Source of the DNA: Candidatus Moranbacteria bacterium GW2011_GWE2_36_40
GTDB lineage: Bacteria; Patescibacteriota; Minisyncoccia; Moranbacterales; GWC2-37-73
Length of the DNA stretch: 59,195 nucleotides
Reading direction: 5' to 3'
Assembly: GCA_000991645.1 (NCBI GenBank)
Contig: LBRX01000003.1
Span: 1-59,195 of the forward strand
In this document: in pieces, positions 20,462-37,289 of the stretch
Numbering within the stretch: the first letter of the stretch is position 1
Layout: each line of letters opens with the position of its first letter
Translations under genes and position numbers: made by a program
Notes under the pieces: model-generated
Databases searched by the model: none
What the model was told of the DNA's origin: nothing
The model's input: only the letters and a program-made list of their open reading frames with translations

Positions 20462-21542
20462 TTATTGACGGTCGCAAATATGTGTAGCATCATGGTGGAT
20501 TATCTTTTCGATATCTTTTTTAATATTGTATCCATTACAATGCCTTAATATTCCCAAATATGACTGCAGACTACCATTAAATGTTTTTTCTGAGATAATT
20601 TTCTTTTGAAAATTATCCCTATTTTCTTTGATTTTTCGCAAAACTCTTTTTCTGGTTTTTGCACGAAAAATTCGATGATGAGGAAACGCAACATACCCAA
20701 GAAAATCTACACCTTGTCGATACTTTCTAATTATTATTTTATTCGGATGTAAAATTAATTTCAATCTATCTTCAAGAAAATTATCAACCAGCGCAACAAT
20801 TTCCTCGAGATGTTTCCTATTTTCACTTAAAAAAATAAAATCATCGCAATATCGCAAATAATATTTTTCCCTCAAAATATGTTTTGCGAACTGATCAAGC
20901 TCATTGAGATAAATATTAGCAAAAAGTTGACTAGTGACATTCCCAAGTGGCAGACCTTTTGAAAAACTTTTAATTATTTTTTCCAAAAGCAAAAAAGCAT
21001 CTTTGTTTTTTATTTTTCTTTTTATCATTTCCAATAAAACATCCTGGTCAATTGAATCAAAAAAATTTTCTAACATCGCATTTGAGTGCAAAAATATTTT
21101 TATGATTATTACTGCTAGCTTTTTGCAAAAATTCCTCCAACCGATTCACTGCGCGATGAGTTCCCTTTTCCAGCCTGCAAGAATATGAATCGAAAACAAA
21201 AGATTTATCAAAAATGGGATACAGAATTCGAAAAATTGCATGATGCAAAACGCGATCTCTAACTGTTGCTTTATGAATTAGTCTTAATTTTGGATCACAA
21301 ACGTTAAATGCGGTATACTGATCATGTTGGTATGATTTGTTTTTTAGTTCTTCATGCAAGGCAAAAAGATTATCTTCTAGATTAAATTCAAATTCCTGGA
21401 CATCTTGTTTAGTTCCTTTACTACGGCAAAATTCACGCCAAGCAAAAAACAAATTTTCGAGACTAATTATTTTTTCAAATAAATCATCATGGAAAACCTC
21501 ACAATTAAGACCACCCCCCCCCAGCACAGTCAATGATTTCAA
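20462..21542 (-). CDS. DGR-type reverse transcriptase, split into two ORFs by a frameshift at a T7 run
   Basis: Motifs are ..PLGNVTSQLFANIYLNELD.. (DGR hallmark [I/L]GxxxSQ) and ..YLRYCDDFIFL.. (YxDD). The ORFs 21057-21542 and 20462-21091 join as ..RKFF|DSIDQD.. if one T of the run at 21059-21065 is removed. Only a TTG/GTG start is available in the current frame. Confidence 0.85.
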
Positions 21543-21552
21543 AAATGTTCCC

Positions 21553-21915
21553 TTGGTGCATAAGATTTGTGAATTTTATAAATCTATTTATTTGCTTTCC
21601 CCCAAACTTTCCAAGCGCGACCGATTTGGAATATATGTAAAAATTGAAAATTCTTGTTTGGAAATAATGGATCTTATTATCGAAGCTGCATTAGTATCAA
21701 AACCAAGCAAACTACAGCTAATCCTTGTGGCTCGTGTGAAAATAGAAAAATTGAAACGCTTTTTTCGTATGATGTATGAGCTTAATATCATTGAATACAA
21801 AAAATATATTTTGTTTCAAACTTCACTTCAAGAAATTTCAAAAGACACTAACAATTGGATTTCATATTTGAAAAATACAAGAGCTACAACAAGTGAAAAT
21901 CCTACCCAGGAGTGA
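21553..21915 (+). CDS. avd: Avd-like four-helix-bundle accessory protein (TTG/GTG start), divergent from the RT
   Basis: ..ICEFYKSIYLLSPKLSKRDRFGIYVKIENSCLEIMDLIIEA..KIEKLKRFFRMMYELNII.. resembles the four-helix-bundle / 23S-IVS protein family used as DGR Avd. Paralogous to 34708-35061. Confidence 0.7.
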   Translation: MVHKICEFYKSIYLLSPKLSKRDRFGIYVKIENSCLEIMDLIIEAALVSKPSKLQLILVARVKIEKLKRFFRMMYELNIIEYKKYILFQTSLQEISKDTNNWISYLKNTRATTSENPTQE

Positions 21916-21950
21916 GCAGGATTTTTCACTGTCTATCAATAGGCAGTTTT

Positions 21951-22079
21951 GAAACTTCTTCGCGGGAACGCAGGCCGTCGCTGGCGTCGTCGGAATGGTA
22001 CCAATTGACGTTCATCTTGTCGTCATTGAAATTCACGTTCGGAACGTTGCCATCGGAGTTGCGAGAGCCAGCATTTTGT
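21951..22079 (-). repeat. DGR1 template repeat (TR1)
   Basis: Aligns base for base with 22467-22595. The 123-nt core has 17 mismatches, all at plus-strand T (adenine on the coding/minus strand) in this copy. Extending by 6 nt adds 4 more of the same kind. TR codons at the variable sites are mostly AAC/AAT. Confidence 0.9.
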
Positions 22080-22284: not shown

Positions 22285-22318
22285 TATACACTTTCCGTCG
22301 ACCGACAGAAAGTGTATA
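22285..22318. repeat. 34-bp palindrome shared by both DGR loci
   Basis: tatacactttccgtcgaccgacagaaagtgtata. Differs at 2 positions from the perfect copy at 33633-33666. Confidence 0.85.
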
Positions 22319-22399
22319 AGTTTTAATCAGCCATATAAAAAACAAAAAAATACCAGTAATCAAAACCACCAGCTAAAGCTGGTGGATTATTTATGTATA

Positions 22400-22435
22400 A
22401 AAAGAGCGTCGCTTCGGAGTACCGAAAGCGACGCA
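22400..22435 (-). terminator. GC-rich hairpin/terminator just downstream of VR1
   Basis: gcgtcgcttcgg agta ccgaaagcgacgc, followed on the minus strand by tcttttt. A second 8-bp stem with a 4-nt loop, ccaccagc taaa gctggtgg, lies at 22366-22385. Confidence 0.65.
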
Positions 22436-22462
22436 TAGGATAAAAGTAAAATAGGAAAAAGG

Positions 22463-23203
22463 TTAAGAAACTACTTCGCGGGAACGCAGGCCGCCGCTGG
22501 CGCCGTCGGAACGGTACCAATCGACGTCCATCCTGTCGCCATCGAAAACCACGCGCGGAACGAGGCCATCGGAGCGGCGAGAGCCAGCACAAAGTGTGAC
22601 ATTTTTGATGTCGAGATGATTGCCTGTTTCATTAAAAAACTTTAGTTCATGAATCAAGCGCTCAGCCAACGTCTCAGTCTTTACGCCTTTTTCTTGGATA
22701 TCATCAGCAGAAAGATTTTTCAAATTTTCATCTGCCTCCTGAACATCCTTGACCCAAATAGCACGCACGCCATCTTTTGCGTTGCGCTCATTCCAGGTAA
22801 CTTTCTTGTCTAGATCATCATTTGTCCAACGCCAGCATGGAAACAACTCTTTGCATTTTGCGTAAAGCTGCTCAAGTGAAAGATCTTCAATGATAAGCAG
22901 CCGCCACTCACCCTCAGGTTTTTCCGGGATTCTAACATTTGAATAGTCACAAAAACCACCAAATGTTTTCCGATAAAAATCCTGCCAGTCAATAATAATA
23001 TCTAACTGAACATCTGCGAATTGTGTCTTCGCAAATGGATTGCGATGTTCCACCAGTGCCTGCAAATGATCCAGCGTCAGACCTTTGCCAGGATTTTTCA
23101 TCCCCAATAAAAGCTGTCTCCAAATTTCTGCTGAAATCTTTGCAAACTTTTCAAACCAGCTCGGCATCAGATCCGAACTTCCAACCATTTTTACTTTTTT
23201 CAT
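22463..23203 (-). CDS. DGR1 variable target protein (246 aa, no signal peptide)
   Basis: The C-terminal 43 codons are VR1 (..LCAGSRRSDGLVPRVVFDGDRMDVDWYRSDGASGGLRSREVVS*). The N-terminal domain carries no motif I recognise. Confidence 0.85.
   Translation of the reverse strand: MKKVKMVGSSDLMPSWFEKFAKISAEIWRQLLLGMKNPGKGLTLDHLQALVEHRNPFAKTQFADVQLDIIIDWQDFYRKTFGGFCDYSNVRIPEKPEGEWRLLIIEDLSLEQLYAKCKELFPCWRWTNDDLDKKVTWNERNAKDGVRAIWVKDVQEADENLKNLSADDIQEKGVKTETLAERLIHELKFFNETGNHLDIKNVTLCAGSRRSDGLVPRVVFDGDRMDVDWYRSDGASGGLRSREVVS
22467..22595 (-). repeat. DGR1 variable repeat (VR1)
   Basis: 3' end of the target ORF, adjacent to the TAA stop at 22463-22465. See TR1 for the alignment. Confidence 0.9.
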
Positions 23204-24860: not shown

Positions 24861-25220
24861 TTATTTTTTCAATTTCTTTTTAAATCCTCCGAGTTGTTTA
24901 GATATAACTTCACATAATGAATAAATTTCTTGATATTTCTCACTACTTAAAAGCCCTGTGATTCTTAACGTATCTACGCCCGCTAATACCTCATACAGAG
25001 AACCAAGTGAGATATCAAGAAAACGATTAAAATCCTTGTCAGATTCTTTTCCTCCACCTTCTGCGATATTCAATATAACTGAAAGCGCAGCTCTCATCAA
25101 TTGCGCACCTATTTCGAACCTATATTCTCTAGGGAGTATATGCACTATTTCAAAAATTATCAAGTATAATTTTTGTGAATCCTTATATACAGTCCACTCT
25201 AAAAATCTAAACTTATTCAC
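24861..25220 (-). CDS. orphan four-helix-bundle (Avd/23S-IVS-like) protein
   Basis: ..LPREYRFEIGAQLMRAALSVILNIAEGGGKESDKDFNRFLDISLGSLYEV.. is the classic four-helix-bundle family signature (..NIAEG..). Flanked by ACTATCA-type (24815-24850) and GTTGTTA-type (25225-25275) arrays. Confidence 0.8.
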   Translation of the reverse strand: MNKFRFLEWTVYKDSQKLYLIIFEIVHILPREYRFEIGAQLMRAALSVILNIAEGGGKESDKDFNRFLDISLGSLYEVLAGVDTLRITGLLSSEKYQEIYSLCEVISKQLGGFKKKLKK

Positions 25221-33631: not shown

Positions 33632-34701
33632 TTATACACTTTCCGTCGGCCGACGGAAAGTGTATATTTTTTCAATTTGTTTTTGAATATTGTGACCCTT
33701 GCAATGCTTTAGAATTCCCAAATAAGATTGCAGACTTTGATTAAGCTTTTTCTCTGAAATTAAACCCTCTTGGAAATCAGCATATTTCTTACCTAGCTTT
33801 TTAAACATCCTTCTTTTTGTGTTTGTCCGCAAAACTGAGTGATGCGGTCTCAAAACATATCCTAAGAAATCTATGCCTTGATGAAATTTATCAATTGAAA
33901 CCTTGCTTGGATGTAGCTGCAATTTCAATTCTTTTTCCAAAAATTCATCTATCAAATTTAAAATATCATTAAGATATGCCTCATCTTGGTGTATAATAAT
34001 AAAATCATCTGCATAACGAAAATAATTTTTCGCTTTAATTTTTCTTTTTATGAACCAGTCCAATTCATTGAGATATATATTAGCAAATATCTGCGACGTT
34101 ATATTACCAATTGGCACACCTCGTTTTTCTTCAAAAAATTCATCCCGTAAGACCCCCCCACCACGGAAACATCCTCGGAGGAAAAGCTAAGGATAATTTC
34201 TTCGACTAGTCGCATAAATTTCTCATCTGCAATCTTACACGCAATCAATTGCAAAAGTTTTCTTTGATTTATGCTGGCAAAGAATTTTTTGATGTCACAT
34301 TTTAGTGCAAAAACCGGTCGAGTAAAATTTCTACTTTCCCTGCGCAAACATTTTAAAAGATTTTTGACTGCAAGATGTGTTCCCTTGTTTTTTCTTGATG
34401 AATAAGCATGAAAAATGAAATGTGGATCAAAAATATCATTCAGCTTCTCAAACACCAAATGTTGCACGATACGATCTCTTACTGTCGCCTTACTTATAAT
34501 TCTGTGCCTCGGATCATGAATATGAAAAATTTCATATTCTCCATGTTGATATGATTGATTCTCAAGCTCTTCTTGCAAAAGAAAAAGATTATCCTCCAAA
34601 AATCTTTCAAAAATTTGCACGTCTCGCCTGCCGTGTTTTCCATTTCTAAATTCTTTCCAAGATTGAAAAATGTTTTCAAGACTAATCAATTCATCATACA
34701 T
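33632..34701 (-). CDS. DGR-type reverse transcriptase, split into two ORFs by a frameshift at a G7 run
   Basis: ..VPIGNITSQIFANIYLNELD.. and ..YFRYADDFIIIH... The ORFs 34099-34701 and 33632-34117 join as ..DVSVVGGGVLRDEFFEEKRGVPIGN.. if the C7 run at 34153-34159 (plus strand) were C8. Confidence 0.85.
33633..33666. repeat. perfect 34-bp palindrome overlapping the RT2 stop codon
   Basis: tatacactttccgtcgg|ccgacggaaagtgtata. It encodes the last 11 codons of RT2 (..IYTFRRPTESV*). Second copy at 22285-22318. Confidence 0.9.
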
Positions 34702-34707
34702 ATACTT

Positions 34708-35061
34708 ATGAACACTTATGCTAATAATGAGATTCCTGTAATCAAAAAAGTTTATACGCTTTACAAAACATTTTATGAATTTTCCAAATTATTTCCCAAA
34801 AAAGATAAGTATGTGTTAGGAAGCAAGTGCGAAGAATACATTATTGCAACTTTGGAATTGTTGCTTGCTGCCTCAAGCGCTCCCAAAAATGAGAAACAAA
34901 TTTTCATCAAACAAGCTAATATAAAATTCGATGCGCTCAAAATATTTATTCGCATTGCAAATGACATAAGGATGCTTGATACAAAAAAATATATTGCGAT
35001 TCAAAAACAGCTTCAAGAAATCGGACGCATGCTGGGCGGTTGGCAAAAATCATTGAATTAA
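34708..35061 (+). CDS. avd: Avd-like four-helix-bundle accessory protein, divergent from RT2 (6-nt gap)
   Basis: MNTYANNEIPVIKKVYTLYKTFYEFSKLFPKKDKYVLGSKCEEYIIATLELLLAA..IFIRIANDIRMLD..IGRMLGGW... Paralog of 21553-21915. Confidence 0.78.
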   Translation: MNTYANNEIPVIKKVYTLYKTFYEFSKLFPKKDKYVLGSKCEEYIIATLELLLAASSAPKNEKQIFIKQANIKFDALKIFIRIANDIRMLDTKKYIAIQKQLQEIGRMLGGWQKSLN

Positions 35062-35068
35062 AAAAGCT

Positions 35069-35096
35069 AAAGGAGCTCGCATTGAGCTCCTTTTTT
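35069..35096. terminator. hairpin plus T-run between avd2 and TR2
   Basis: aaaggagctc gcatt gagctccttt ttt. It is a strong terminator for plus-strand avd2. On the minus strand it follows TR2 with a weaker U tract. Confidence 0.7.
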
Positions 35097-35108
35097 ACAA
35101 TAGACACA

Positions 35109-35244
35109 ACCCGATGAAGAGCAAGCCAGACGAGTAGTTGTCGTTCGCATTCGCAAGGTTGTCGGTGTTGTTGAAGTTGAAGTTGTCATCGTTAGCCTTA
35201 GCGTAGAGAGAATACTCGGCGGACTGCCATGAATTTGCTTTTCT
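35109..35244 (-). repeat. DGR2 template repeat (TR2)
   Basis: The 130-nt core aligns with 35602-35731 with 7 mismatches. Six are at coding-strand adenines of this copy and one is a coding-strand C in TR versus T in VR. A 6-nt extension adds 5 more adenine-site changes. Confidence 0.88.
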
Positions 35245-35490: not shown

Positions 35491-35527
35491 AAAAGAAAAG
35501 CGCGCAATACTTTTCAGTATCACGCGC
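35491..35527 (-). terminator. terminator of the DGR2 target gene
   Basis: gcgcgcaatac ttttca gtatcacgcgc, followed on the minus strand by ttttctttt. Confidence 0.6.
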
Positions 35528-35599: not shown

Positions 35600-36508
35600 C
35601 TACCCGATGAAGAGCAAGCCAGACGAGTAGCTGTCGTTCGCATCCGCAAGGTTGTCGGTGCAGTTAAAGTTGAAGTAGCCATCGTTAGCCTTAGCGTAGA
35701 GAGAATACTCGGCGGACTGCCATGAATTTGCAGCGCAGAGATATCCGGGAGTGTTGTAATTCTTTCCCAACACATCAGGATACATTGCCACAGCAGTCAT
35801 GATATCAATTGCGCCAGAAAGCAACAATGATTCCGGGAGCACGGCCATCTGCTGTCTGCCTGCATTAATAGAAAATCCTTGCGTTGGAAAAAATAATATT
35901 CCCACCACCGGACCTTCTGCCATTTTTGCAAGAAGTTTCTCGTGCCCACTACCTTCAATGATTCCTACCTTGCCAGTCAATTCTCCTTTGCGGTAGTTGT
36001 TGAAACTACGATTGGGAAATTGCTGCCTGTAAGATTTTTCCGCCACGACAAGAAAAATTTCTTCCAGACTTTTTCCGTAGTCAGTGACTTCAAGCTTCGG
36101 AAGGCAGATCGGCAACCACACGCCATTGAGCAAATTCAAAAGAAGTGAATCATTTCTCAATTGCTCAAACAACTCTTCGCTTCTTTTCGCAAATTCTTCA
36201 GTAGAAATCAACTGCATACTCTCAGCGTAAAGACTGGTCAAACTATTAATCCGCTCTGCATAGTCAATCTTCGGCTGGACAAGCTTGAAATTCTTGTTCG
36301 GATCGCAAACATTGCCAGTCAGTTCCTTCGGAATACAACGACCATTTTTATCGATGAGTTTTCTGATGACATCTTCAAAAGCCATCTTTTTTTCACCACG
36401 TAAAACTGCATCGAGATTTTCCCTACCACCAAACGCATCAACGATAGCAAGTATTGTTGGACCATCCAAACCCCTCAATTTTTCAAGAACTTCCGCTGTT
36501 GTACTCAT
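35600..36508 (-). CDS. DGR2 variable target protein (302 aa, no signal peptide)
   Basis: The C-terminus ..CAANSWQSAEYSLYAKANDGYFNFNCTDNLADANDSYSSGLLFIG* is VR2. TR2 encodes ..DDNFNFNNTDNLANANDNY.. at the same positions. Confidence 0.85.
   Translation of the reverse strand: MSTTAEVLEKLRGLDGPTILAIVDAFGGRENLDAVLRGEKKMAFEDVIRKLIDKNGRCIPKELTGNVCDPNKNFKLVQPKIDYAERINSLTSLYAESMQLISTEEFAKRSEELFEQLRNDSLLLNLLNGVWLPICLPKLEVTDYGKSLEEIFLVVAEKSYRQQFPNRSFNNYRKGELTGKVGIIEGSGHEKLLAKMAEGPVVGILFFPTQGFSINAGRQQMAVLPESLLLSGAIDIMTAVAMYPDVLGKNYNTPGYLCAANSWQSAEYSLYAKANDGYFNFNCTDNLADANDSYSSGLLFIG
35602..35737 (-). repeat. DGR2 variable repeat (VR2)
   Basis: 3' end of the target ORF, starting at the last base of the TAG stop (35600-35602). 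See TR2. Confidence 0.88.
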
Positions 36509-36896: not shown

Positions 36897-37289
36897 ATGT
36901 CATTAGAAAAAACAAAAATAAAAAGTTACACAGATTTAGATGTTTATCAAAGATCATATAAATTATCTATTATTGTATGCACTAAGGTCATTGTAAAACT
37001 TCCATCAGCAGAAAAATTTGGTTTAACTGATCAACTCGGAAGATCATCCAAGGCAATTCCAAGATTAATCGCAGAAGGCTTTGGCAAAAAACATCAGAAG
37101 AGAGGTTTTCACAAATATTTGGATGATGCGATGGCGGAAAATAATGAGTCTATTGTAAGTCTTTGCCAGATACGAGATATTTATGCTAATAATATTAATG
37201 CCAAATCGGTTCAGTTACTAATTGATGAATACGAAATAGTAGGAAAACAAATGTTTAGACTTAAACAAAGCTGGAGTAAATTTTCTTAA
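36897..37289 (+). CDS. orphan four-helix-bundle (Avd/23S-IVS-like) protein
   Basis: ..YTDLDVYQRSYKLSIIV..LTDQLGRSSKAIPRLIAEGFGKK..YLDDAMAENNES.. family signature. Flanked by the inverted repeats gtcattagcagta (36867-36879) and tactgccaatgac (37341-37353). Confidence 0.8.
   Translation: MSLEKTKIKSYTDLDVYQRSYKLSIIVCTKVIVKLPSAEKFGLTDQLGRSSKAIPRLIAEGFGKKHQKRGFHKYLDDAMAENNESIVSLCQIRDIYANNINAKSVQLLIDEYEIVGKQMFRLKQSWSKFS

Follow-up and report, generated by a model that had tools for sequence, protein, structure and literature searches.

How does a diversity-generating retroelement (DGR) produce its template RNA and its reverse transcriptase (RT) if the accessory gene avd lies in reverse orientation between the two, and is such a layout peculiar to the organism that carries it? 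The question is raised by a stretch of 59,195 nucleotides from Candidatus Moranbacteria bacterium GW2011_GWE2_36_40 (contig LBRX01000003.1, here C3, 36% GC; hereafter the window), which holds two cassettes of this kind. In each of them the minus strand reads, in this order, the target gene with its variable repeat (VR), the template repeat (TR), avd as a plus-strand gene, and the RT gene. We regard it as probable that both are chromosomal DGRs of the B3 type found in the candidate phyla radiation (CPR), which would express TR as a short RNA and avd and RT divergently, with expression being gated by a slippery repeat. The inverted avd gene itself, which a first-pass annotation of the sequence had called unusual, is ordinary for the lineage.

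Two retroelements in the standard layout of their lineage

Both cassettes are genuine DGRs. The repeats of cassette 1, TR1 and VR1, differ at 19 positions, all 19 of which are adenines in TR1, and not a single non-adenine mismatch is found in 128 nt; of the seven differences between TR2 and VR2, six likewise fall on TR adenines, the remaining one being a C-to-T change. Such adenine-specific differences between TR and VR prove that mutagenic retrohoming has taken place in the past. VR1 and VR2 form the last codons of their target open reading frames (ORFs), and the 3' segments, which are the same in TR and VR (GGCCTGCGTTCCCGCGAAG in cassette 1), are GC-rich and resemble an initiation of mutagenic homing (IMH) site. 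About 25 nt beyond VR1 follows a GC-rich hairpin (Table 1), at the place where a hairpin follows the IMH in other DGRs. The spacer between VR1 and TR1, approximately 390 nt long, contains hairpins as well. For target proteins 1 and 2, no Pfam family was found at a meaningful score, and the two have no relation to one another in their variable C-terminal parts. When the window was scanned against Rfam, two tRNAs were the only matches, and none lay inside the cassettes.

The proteins encoded next to the repeats are of the expected kinds. A profile built from RT1 and RT2 has the Bordetella phage enzyme bRT as its best match in the PDB (8UB7_A, E 1.3e-48), ahead of retron and group II RTs; both sequences match Pfam RVT_1 and keep the motifs LGN(V/I)TSQ and Y(C/A)DD. 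The first-pass annotation had left room for the possibility that the four-helix genes have nothing to do with Avd, and this can now be set aside, since avd2 scores 69.4 bits against the Pfam family bAvd (PF22296, cut-off 40) and avd1, at 33 bits (E 8.8e-8) below that cut-off, reaches 123 bits against the core hidden Markov model (HMM) of the family. While a single-sequence PDB search with avd2 gave no match, a profile of 19 sequences of the avd family, which was needed at this distance, had Avd of the Bordetella phage as its top PDB matches (4DWL, E 4.8e-4; 8UB7_B, E 3.1e-3). Two more four-helix-bundle genes (24861-25220, minus strand; 36897-37289, plus strand) lie a few kb from each cassette and outside both; they match Pfam 23S_rRNA_IVP with 91 and 63 bits, respectively, and show a weak bAvd match or none.

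The same annotation had described avd as inverted, head to head with the RT gene and situated between TR and RT, and this is what is seen in both cassettes. In the nomenclature of Wu et al. 2018 (Nucleic Acids Res 46:11, PMC5758913), where parentheses denote the reverse strand, the order TR-(avd)-RT is architecture B3, which makes up 90% of the CPR DGRs in that study, a set that stems mainly from groundwater metagenomes. A scan of species-representative genomes provided us with 80 loci with related RTs, almost all of them in metagenome-assembled genomes of Patescibacteria, Parcubacteria, Moranbacteria or Saccharibacteria. The search for the same synteny in related genomes, which had been suggested as a check, gave a uniform answer: at every one of the 74 related loci that have upstream DNA, the RT gene is immediately preceded by an avd homologue in the opposite orientation, and the full order VR-TR-(avd)-RT is present at 58 of the 59 loci with a detectable adenine-biased TR/VR pair. 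The interval between the end of TR and the avd stop codon in these relatives ranges from -33 to 62 nt, with a median of 21. This prevalence is far beyond chance. As the layout is both the catalogued architecture B3 and universal among the relatives surveyed, the term unusual does not apply; an inverted avd is the standard and already known arrangement of DGRs in the CPR/Patescibacteria, and the finding as originally worded adds little to the published norm.

The source genome (1.0 Mb in 63 contigs, 95% complete) encodes four DGR RTs in total. In addition to the two of the window, one is found on contig C50 in a B3 layout that has no repeat at the junction of avd and RT, and one on contig C5 in the order VR-RT-TR-avd with all elements on one strand; both of these RTs are intact (391 and 380 aa, respectively). 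The cassettes of the window lie among housekeeping genes (murA/murD, and dnaE/thrS), and the same contigs are also present in groundwater metagenomes.

RT reading frames and the repeat at the avd/RT junction

The first-pass annotation had named an RT that is not expressed among the observations that would refute its model, and had missed that both RT genes of the window are out of frame, a circumstance that bears directly on this point. In RT1, the frame that begins with the ATG is lost at a tract of nine Gs in the overlap with avd1. A second lesion is found at a run of seven Ts (T7, 21059-21065) within a conserved motif, where the sequence stops at RKFF* (RKFF-TGA) and six Ts would give RKFFDSID. 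The UUU UGA at this position is a possible +1 slip site. The frame of RT2 shifts at a run of seven Gs (G7), which is located within a 19-aa variable-loop insertion between '..SFS' and 'GVPIGN'; eight Gs restore the frame and would read VVGGVLRDEFFEEKRGVPIGN. The orthologous RT of another genus (L131) has nine Gs in the same loop and is also split. Among the 80 surveyed related loci no G tract occurs at this loop position, and all 80 RTs are single-frame; compared with this set, only the two RTs of the window are split.

Of G or C runs with a length of at least 7 nt, the 59-kb window has only two, and they lie in the two RT genes. The split of RT1 was recovered in nine independent assemblies, and at least ten assemblies (ENA, JGI, NCBI GCA_000991815.1, Logan) are identical across both cassettes, including G9, G7, T7, VR1 and VR2. 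In this organism, neither RT is in frame and neither VR varies among the assemblies; at the population level, both cassettes would at present be off.

The G9 tract of cassette 1 is the local copy of a repeat that is widespread at this junction. With avd anchors located by HMM, 57 of 76 related junctions were found to carry a slippery repeat, namely poly-G of 7-13 nt (39 junctions), (GT)n (17) or (TCTGT)n (one), and 19 carry none; in family-level relatives, (GA)n is found at the junction as well. Where the repeat is missing, the two ATGs are in most cases only a few nt apart or show an overlap of 2-18 nt, and three loci have overlaps of 51-66 nt. RTs of the poly-G group lack a canonical start on the downstream side of their tract.

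By homology with these relatives, the start codons of cassette 1 are the ATG at 21489 for avd1 (plus strand) and the ATG at 21561 for RT1 (minus strand), and the two frames overlap head to head by 73 nt, a segment that spans the C9/G9 tract. The avd1 ATG is the reverse complement of a conserved RT His codon, and the RT1 ATG is that of the His codon in the P-L-V-H-K motif of avd. Since each ATG thus lies antisense to a His codon that the other gene reads in frame, the frames of RT and avd are automatically coupled, and one tract length sets both: with nine nucleotides both ATG frames run into a stop, with 8 or 11 they are open. Of the start spacings that had been proposed earlier, the 6 nt between the two ATGs of cassette 2 stand, and the 10 nt for cassette 1 do not, as they were counted between two TTG codons (21553 and 21542) that were guesses, taken for want of an ATG. 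In-frame TTG or GTG codons upstream of the G tract were also considered as the true RT start in the relatives; they are missing in L005, L007, L009, L012, L014, L017 and L032, and since many relatives lack them, while the ATG antisense to the avd His codon occurs throughout, they were rejected.

The length of the repeat differs between near-identical genomes of the relatives. One family (L009) has eight Gs in seven assemblies and nine in three, with identical flanks, and the version with eight Gs gives a called RT of 353 aa and a called avd product of 123 aa, whose genes overlap head to head. In a second family (L071), (GT)12 and (GT)11 are found between identical flanks. In this second family (L117-L126), a gene for a serine recombinase, recognised by Resolvase/Recombinase domains of Pfam, lies on the opposite strand and shares sequence with the 3' end of the RT gene.

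We propose, on the basis of these frames and lengths, that the expression of each cassette is gated by its slippery repeat, which would be G9 in the avd1/RT1 overlap and G7 in the RT2 loop. The genes avd and RT would be expressed in divergent directions, with start regions separated by 6 nt in cassette 2 and overlapping in cassette 1, and with such spacing each promoter would have to lie inside the other gene, as the first-pass annotation had reasonably argued. A pattern scan of metagenomes for the avd1/RT1 junction, in which the tract was allowed to vary, returned no match, in a set that may omit the source genome's own records, and a search of one literature library for a link between DGRs and phase variation or homopolymers found no paper on the junction repeat.

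Three points weigh against gating by the repeat. As assembled, 12 of the 57 repeat-bearing junctions are in frame, which is no more than expected by chance, the commonest state being one unit too long. The lengths of G9, G7 and T7 are constant in at least ten assemblies of this organism, at the consensus level, where minor variants are hidden. Lastly, the frame breaks could equally be explained as decay.

According to this last explanation, the frame breaks are inactivating mutations that were fixed in a clonal population, and the cassettes are decaying relics whose layout has no current function here. We find it doubtful. It can account for the two frame problems of RT1 (G9 relative to its ATG, T7 in the RKFF/DSID motif) and the one of RT2 (G7), for the isolation of the two split genes among 80 single-frame relatives, for the invariance of all three tracts and both VRs in at least ten assemblies and for the avd1 score of 33 bits, below the cut-off of 40. 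Apart from the homopolymer breaks, however, both RT frames are open over approximately 360 codons with the catalytic YxDD and the LGN-TSQ motifs retained, and the comparison of TR1 with VR1 gives zero non-adenine mismatches in 128 nt. Furthermore, the G9 tract belongs to a repeat conserved in 57 of 76 relatives, and the location of the RT2 G7 in a variable loop, together with the split G9 orthologue in another genus, fits a switch that has been kept better than random decay.

The TR RNA and the hairpin between TR and avd

In the two cassettes of the window, 30-47 nt separate TR from the avd stop codon, and this short interval holds a terminator-like hairpin. The hairpin of cassette 1 is terminator-like on the minus strand, i.e. 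the strand of TR, with 13 pairs and a fold of -23.6 kcal/mol. The hairpin downstream of TR2, which had been noticed in the first pass and which we place at 35069-35093, is terminator-like on the minus strand, too, and its stem is followed on the plus strand by a clean T6. In at least 32 of 58 relatives, the same gap contains a stem with an A tract on one side and a T tract on the other, and the stem sequences are unrelated to each other. An A tract, stem and T tract in succession have the form of a bidirectional intrinsic terminator placed between convergent transcripts, and we regard the hairpins as candidates for this function.

We propose that transcription from within the VR-TR spacer gives TR a short RNA of its own, that this RNA would end at the TR-avd hairpin, and that the same hairpin would terminate the convergent avd transcript. 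With respect to a start upstream of TR, promoter-like sites score slightly higher there than in a control region (8.1 vs 7.3), and in one subgroup of relatives the sequence TTGTCC..TAAAAT recurs 54-66 nt upstream of TR. In the DGR RNA of BPP-1, TR is preceded by 20 nt of avd and followed by a 140-nt spacer, and a stem-loop to which Avd binds lies immediately 3' of TR; putative Avd-binding stem-loops have been located just 3' of TR in 207 of 278 DGRs, including those of the CPR (Handa et al., bioRxiv 10.1101/2023.10.23.563531). The TR-avd hairpin would be the likely counterpart of this stem-loop, and the priming spacer would then measure approximately 20-60 nt, compared to the 140 nt of BPP-1.

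A different course had been suggested by the first-pass annotation, namely that the TR RNA passes the hairpin and continues antisense across avd into the RT gene, which would result in one TR-RT transcript; the spacer for cDNA priming, for which the annotation had also named the 30-45 nt between TR and the avd stop, would then lie inside the antisense avd. This model, which we consider unlikely, follows BPP-1, where TR and brt share a strand and a stretch of 140 nt 3' of TR is required. It was correctly observed that the U tract on the TR strand is weak: it is interrupted in both window cassettes (CACTTGTTGT; AGCTTTTTT), and termination may hence be partial. In relatives in which the gap is 10 nt or less, or in which TR and avd overlap (e.g. 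L058, L059, L062), antisense avd is the only possible RNA 3' of TR. A separate strong RT promoter is not evident either, the number of promoter-like matches being close to that expected from shuffling (13 vs 9.0 and 10 vs 8.8). Nevertheless, both hairpins passed the terminator scan on the TR strand, and hairpins of the bidirectional form occupy the gap in at least 32 of 58 relatives. Moreover, RNAalifold gave no consensus structure on either strand for a codon-anchored alignment of 70 avd genes, be it for all sequences or for the poly-G and (GT)n subgroups, for which reason we dropped the idea of a conserved spacer structure within antisense avd. A TR-RT read-through transcript would also be fully complementary to the avd mRNA and would collide with it. 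Taken together, read-through of the TR RNA into RT finds no positive support in these data.

The proposal of a short TR RNA that ends at the hairpin has to face objections of its own. The interrupted U tracts count against it as well, and in about one quarter of the relatives TR and avd overlap or are at most 10 nt apart, with no hairpin present, so that any RNA 3' of TR must be antisense avd in those cases. In BPP-1, the required 140-nt spacer includes an RT-binding stem-loop (Handa et al., bioRxiv 10.1101/2023.10.23.563531), and priming with at most 60 nt of spacer would be genuinely different from that system in mechanism. The start and end of the TR RNA as well as the two promoters are placed here by inference only.

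That the homopolymer lengths are assembly or sequencing errors and both RTs are really intact is highly improbable, since, although all frame breaks lie in homopolymers, where indel errors concentrate, at least ten assemblies that differ in assembler and origin (ENA MEGAHIT and scaffold assemblies, JGI, NCBI GCA_000991815.1, Logan) agree on the run lengths, and RNase III, NusB, L11, NusG, MurA, MurD, DnaE and ThrS are intact in a window with 23 A/T runs of 8 nt or more.

More generally, one could speculate, more tentatively than for the window itself, that the DGR RNA of B3 elements in the CPR is a short, self-contained TR transcript ending at a bidirectional terminator hairpin that doubles as the Avd-binding stem-loop, with a spacer of at most approximately 60 nt. 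This would make it a minimal natural DGR RNA, and RT and Avd would be switched together by the repeat in their overlap or in the RT loop. What is known of DGR priming in biochemical and structural terms stems entirely from BPP-1, and the spacer RNA of that system is impossible in a B3 layout. The TR transcript of a B3 element would reveal the minimum size of a functional DGR RNA, which is also relevant to engineered tools for targeted mutagenesis. Should the junction repeat be a true switch, it would represent a stochastic gating of hypermutation itself in these bacteria.

Feature positions and comparison with known systems

The positions of all features are compiled in Table 1. In addition, a 34-bp palindrome (TATACACTTTCCGTCGGCCGACGGAAAGTGTATA) at 33633-33666 overlaps the 3' end of RT2, and a near-copy is located at 22285-22318 between VR1 and TR1. 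The palindrome occurs in five copies in the genome, two of which are 700 bp apart on contig C57.

Table 1. Features of the two DGR cassettes, with positions counted from the first nucleotide of the window.
Feature	Position	Strand	Basis and remarks
Cassette 1
Target gene 1	22463..23203	-	ORF, 246 aa; VR1 at its end
VR1	22462..22589	-	128-nt direct repeat of TR1
GC-rich hairpin 3' of VR1	22406..22434	-	GCGTCGCTTTCGG-TACT-CCGAAGCGACGC, read from the sequence
Second stem 3' of VR1	22366-22385		terminator-like; scan
TR1	21946..22073	-	repeat comparison with VR1
TR1-avd1 hairpin	21896..21925		overlaps the avd1 stop codon; candidate bidirectional terminator, possible Avd-binding stem-loop
avd1	21489..21915	+	core from P-L-V-H-K (CCC 21550; TTG 21553)
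C9/G9 homopolymer	21514..21522		in the avd1/RT1 overlap; local copy of the conserved slippery repeat
RT1	20462..21561	-	ATG 21561 out of frame at G9; in-frame TTG 21542; frame broken again at T7
Cassette 2
Target gene 2	35600..36508	-	302 aa; VR2 at 3' end
VR2	35602-35731	-	130-nt repeat pair with TR2
Hairpin/terminator 3' of VR2	35500..35527	-	terminator scan
TR2	35109..35238	-	130-nt repeat of VR2
TR2-avd2 hairpin	35069..35093		A6-GGAGCTC-AATGC-GAGCTCC-T tract; candidate bidirectional terminator
avd2	34708..35061	+	117 aa; start codon confirmed
RT2	33632..34701	-	ATG 34701; frame broken at G7 34153-34159

With the DGR of BPP-1 (mtd-avd-TR-brt, architecture B1), the window cassettes share the homology of RT to bRT (8UB7_A, E 1.3e-48) and of avd to Avd (4DWL/8UB7_B), the adenine-specific transfer from TR to VR, the location of VR at the 3' end of the target gene and a GC-rich 3' segment identical in TR and VR that is followed, after VR, by a hairpin. 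The differences concern avd and the RNA 3' of TR. In BPP-1, avd is upstream of TR on the same strand, and its 3' end contributes to the DGR RNA together with the 140-nt spacer, whereas in neither cassette of the window does avd have this B1 position: it is inverted and downstream of TR, with 30-47 nt to its stop codon and the terminator-like hairpin in between. Furthermore, the cassettes are chromosomal and the BPP-1 DGR is borne by a phage.

The B3 DGRs of the CPR agree with the window cassettes in how target/VR, TR, inverted avd and RT are ordered and oriented, in having a single adjacent target and in their chromosomal location among housekeeping genes of a small-genome groundwater host. 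The layout itself thus provides no difference; what sets the cassettes apart is that both RTs are out of frame at homopolymers. Cassette 2 additionally differs from the B3 relatives with a junction repeat in that its G tract is inside RT and not at the avd/RT junction.

The known simple-sequence contingency loci include the intragenic poly-G tracts of Campylobacter, Neisseria and Helicobacter as well as, in Haemophilus influenzae, the TA repeat situated where the promoters of hifA and hifB diverge. As in these loci, a slippery repeat at the 5' end of a frame, inside it or between divergent genes sets the frame, and the repeat length varies between near-identical genomes, in our case in the relatives; in this organism itself the tract length is constant at the consensus level, and switching is proposed. 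Two further features distinguish the DGR cassettes from the known contingency loci, namely that one tract lies within two overlapping and opposed reading frames, and that a mutagenesis machine, consisting of RT and Avd, would be gated instead of a surface structure.

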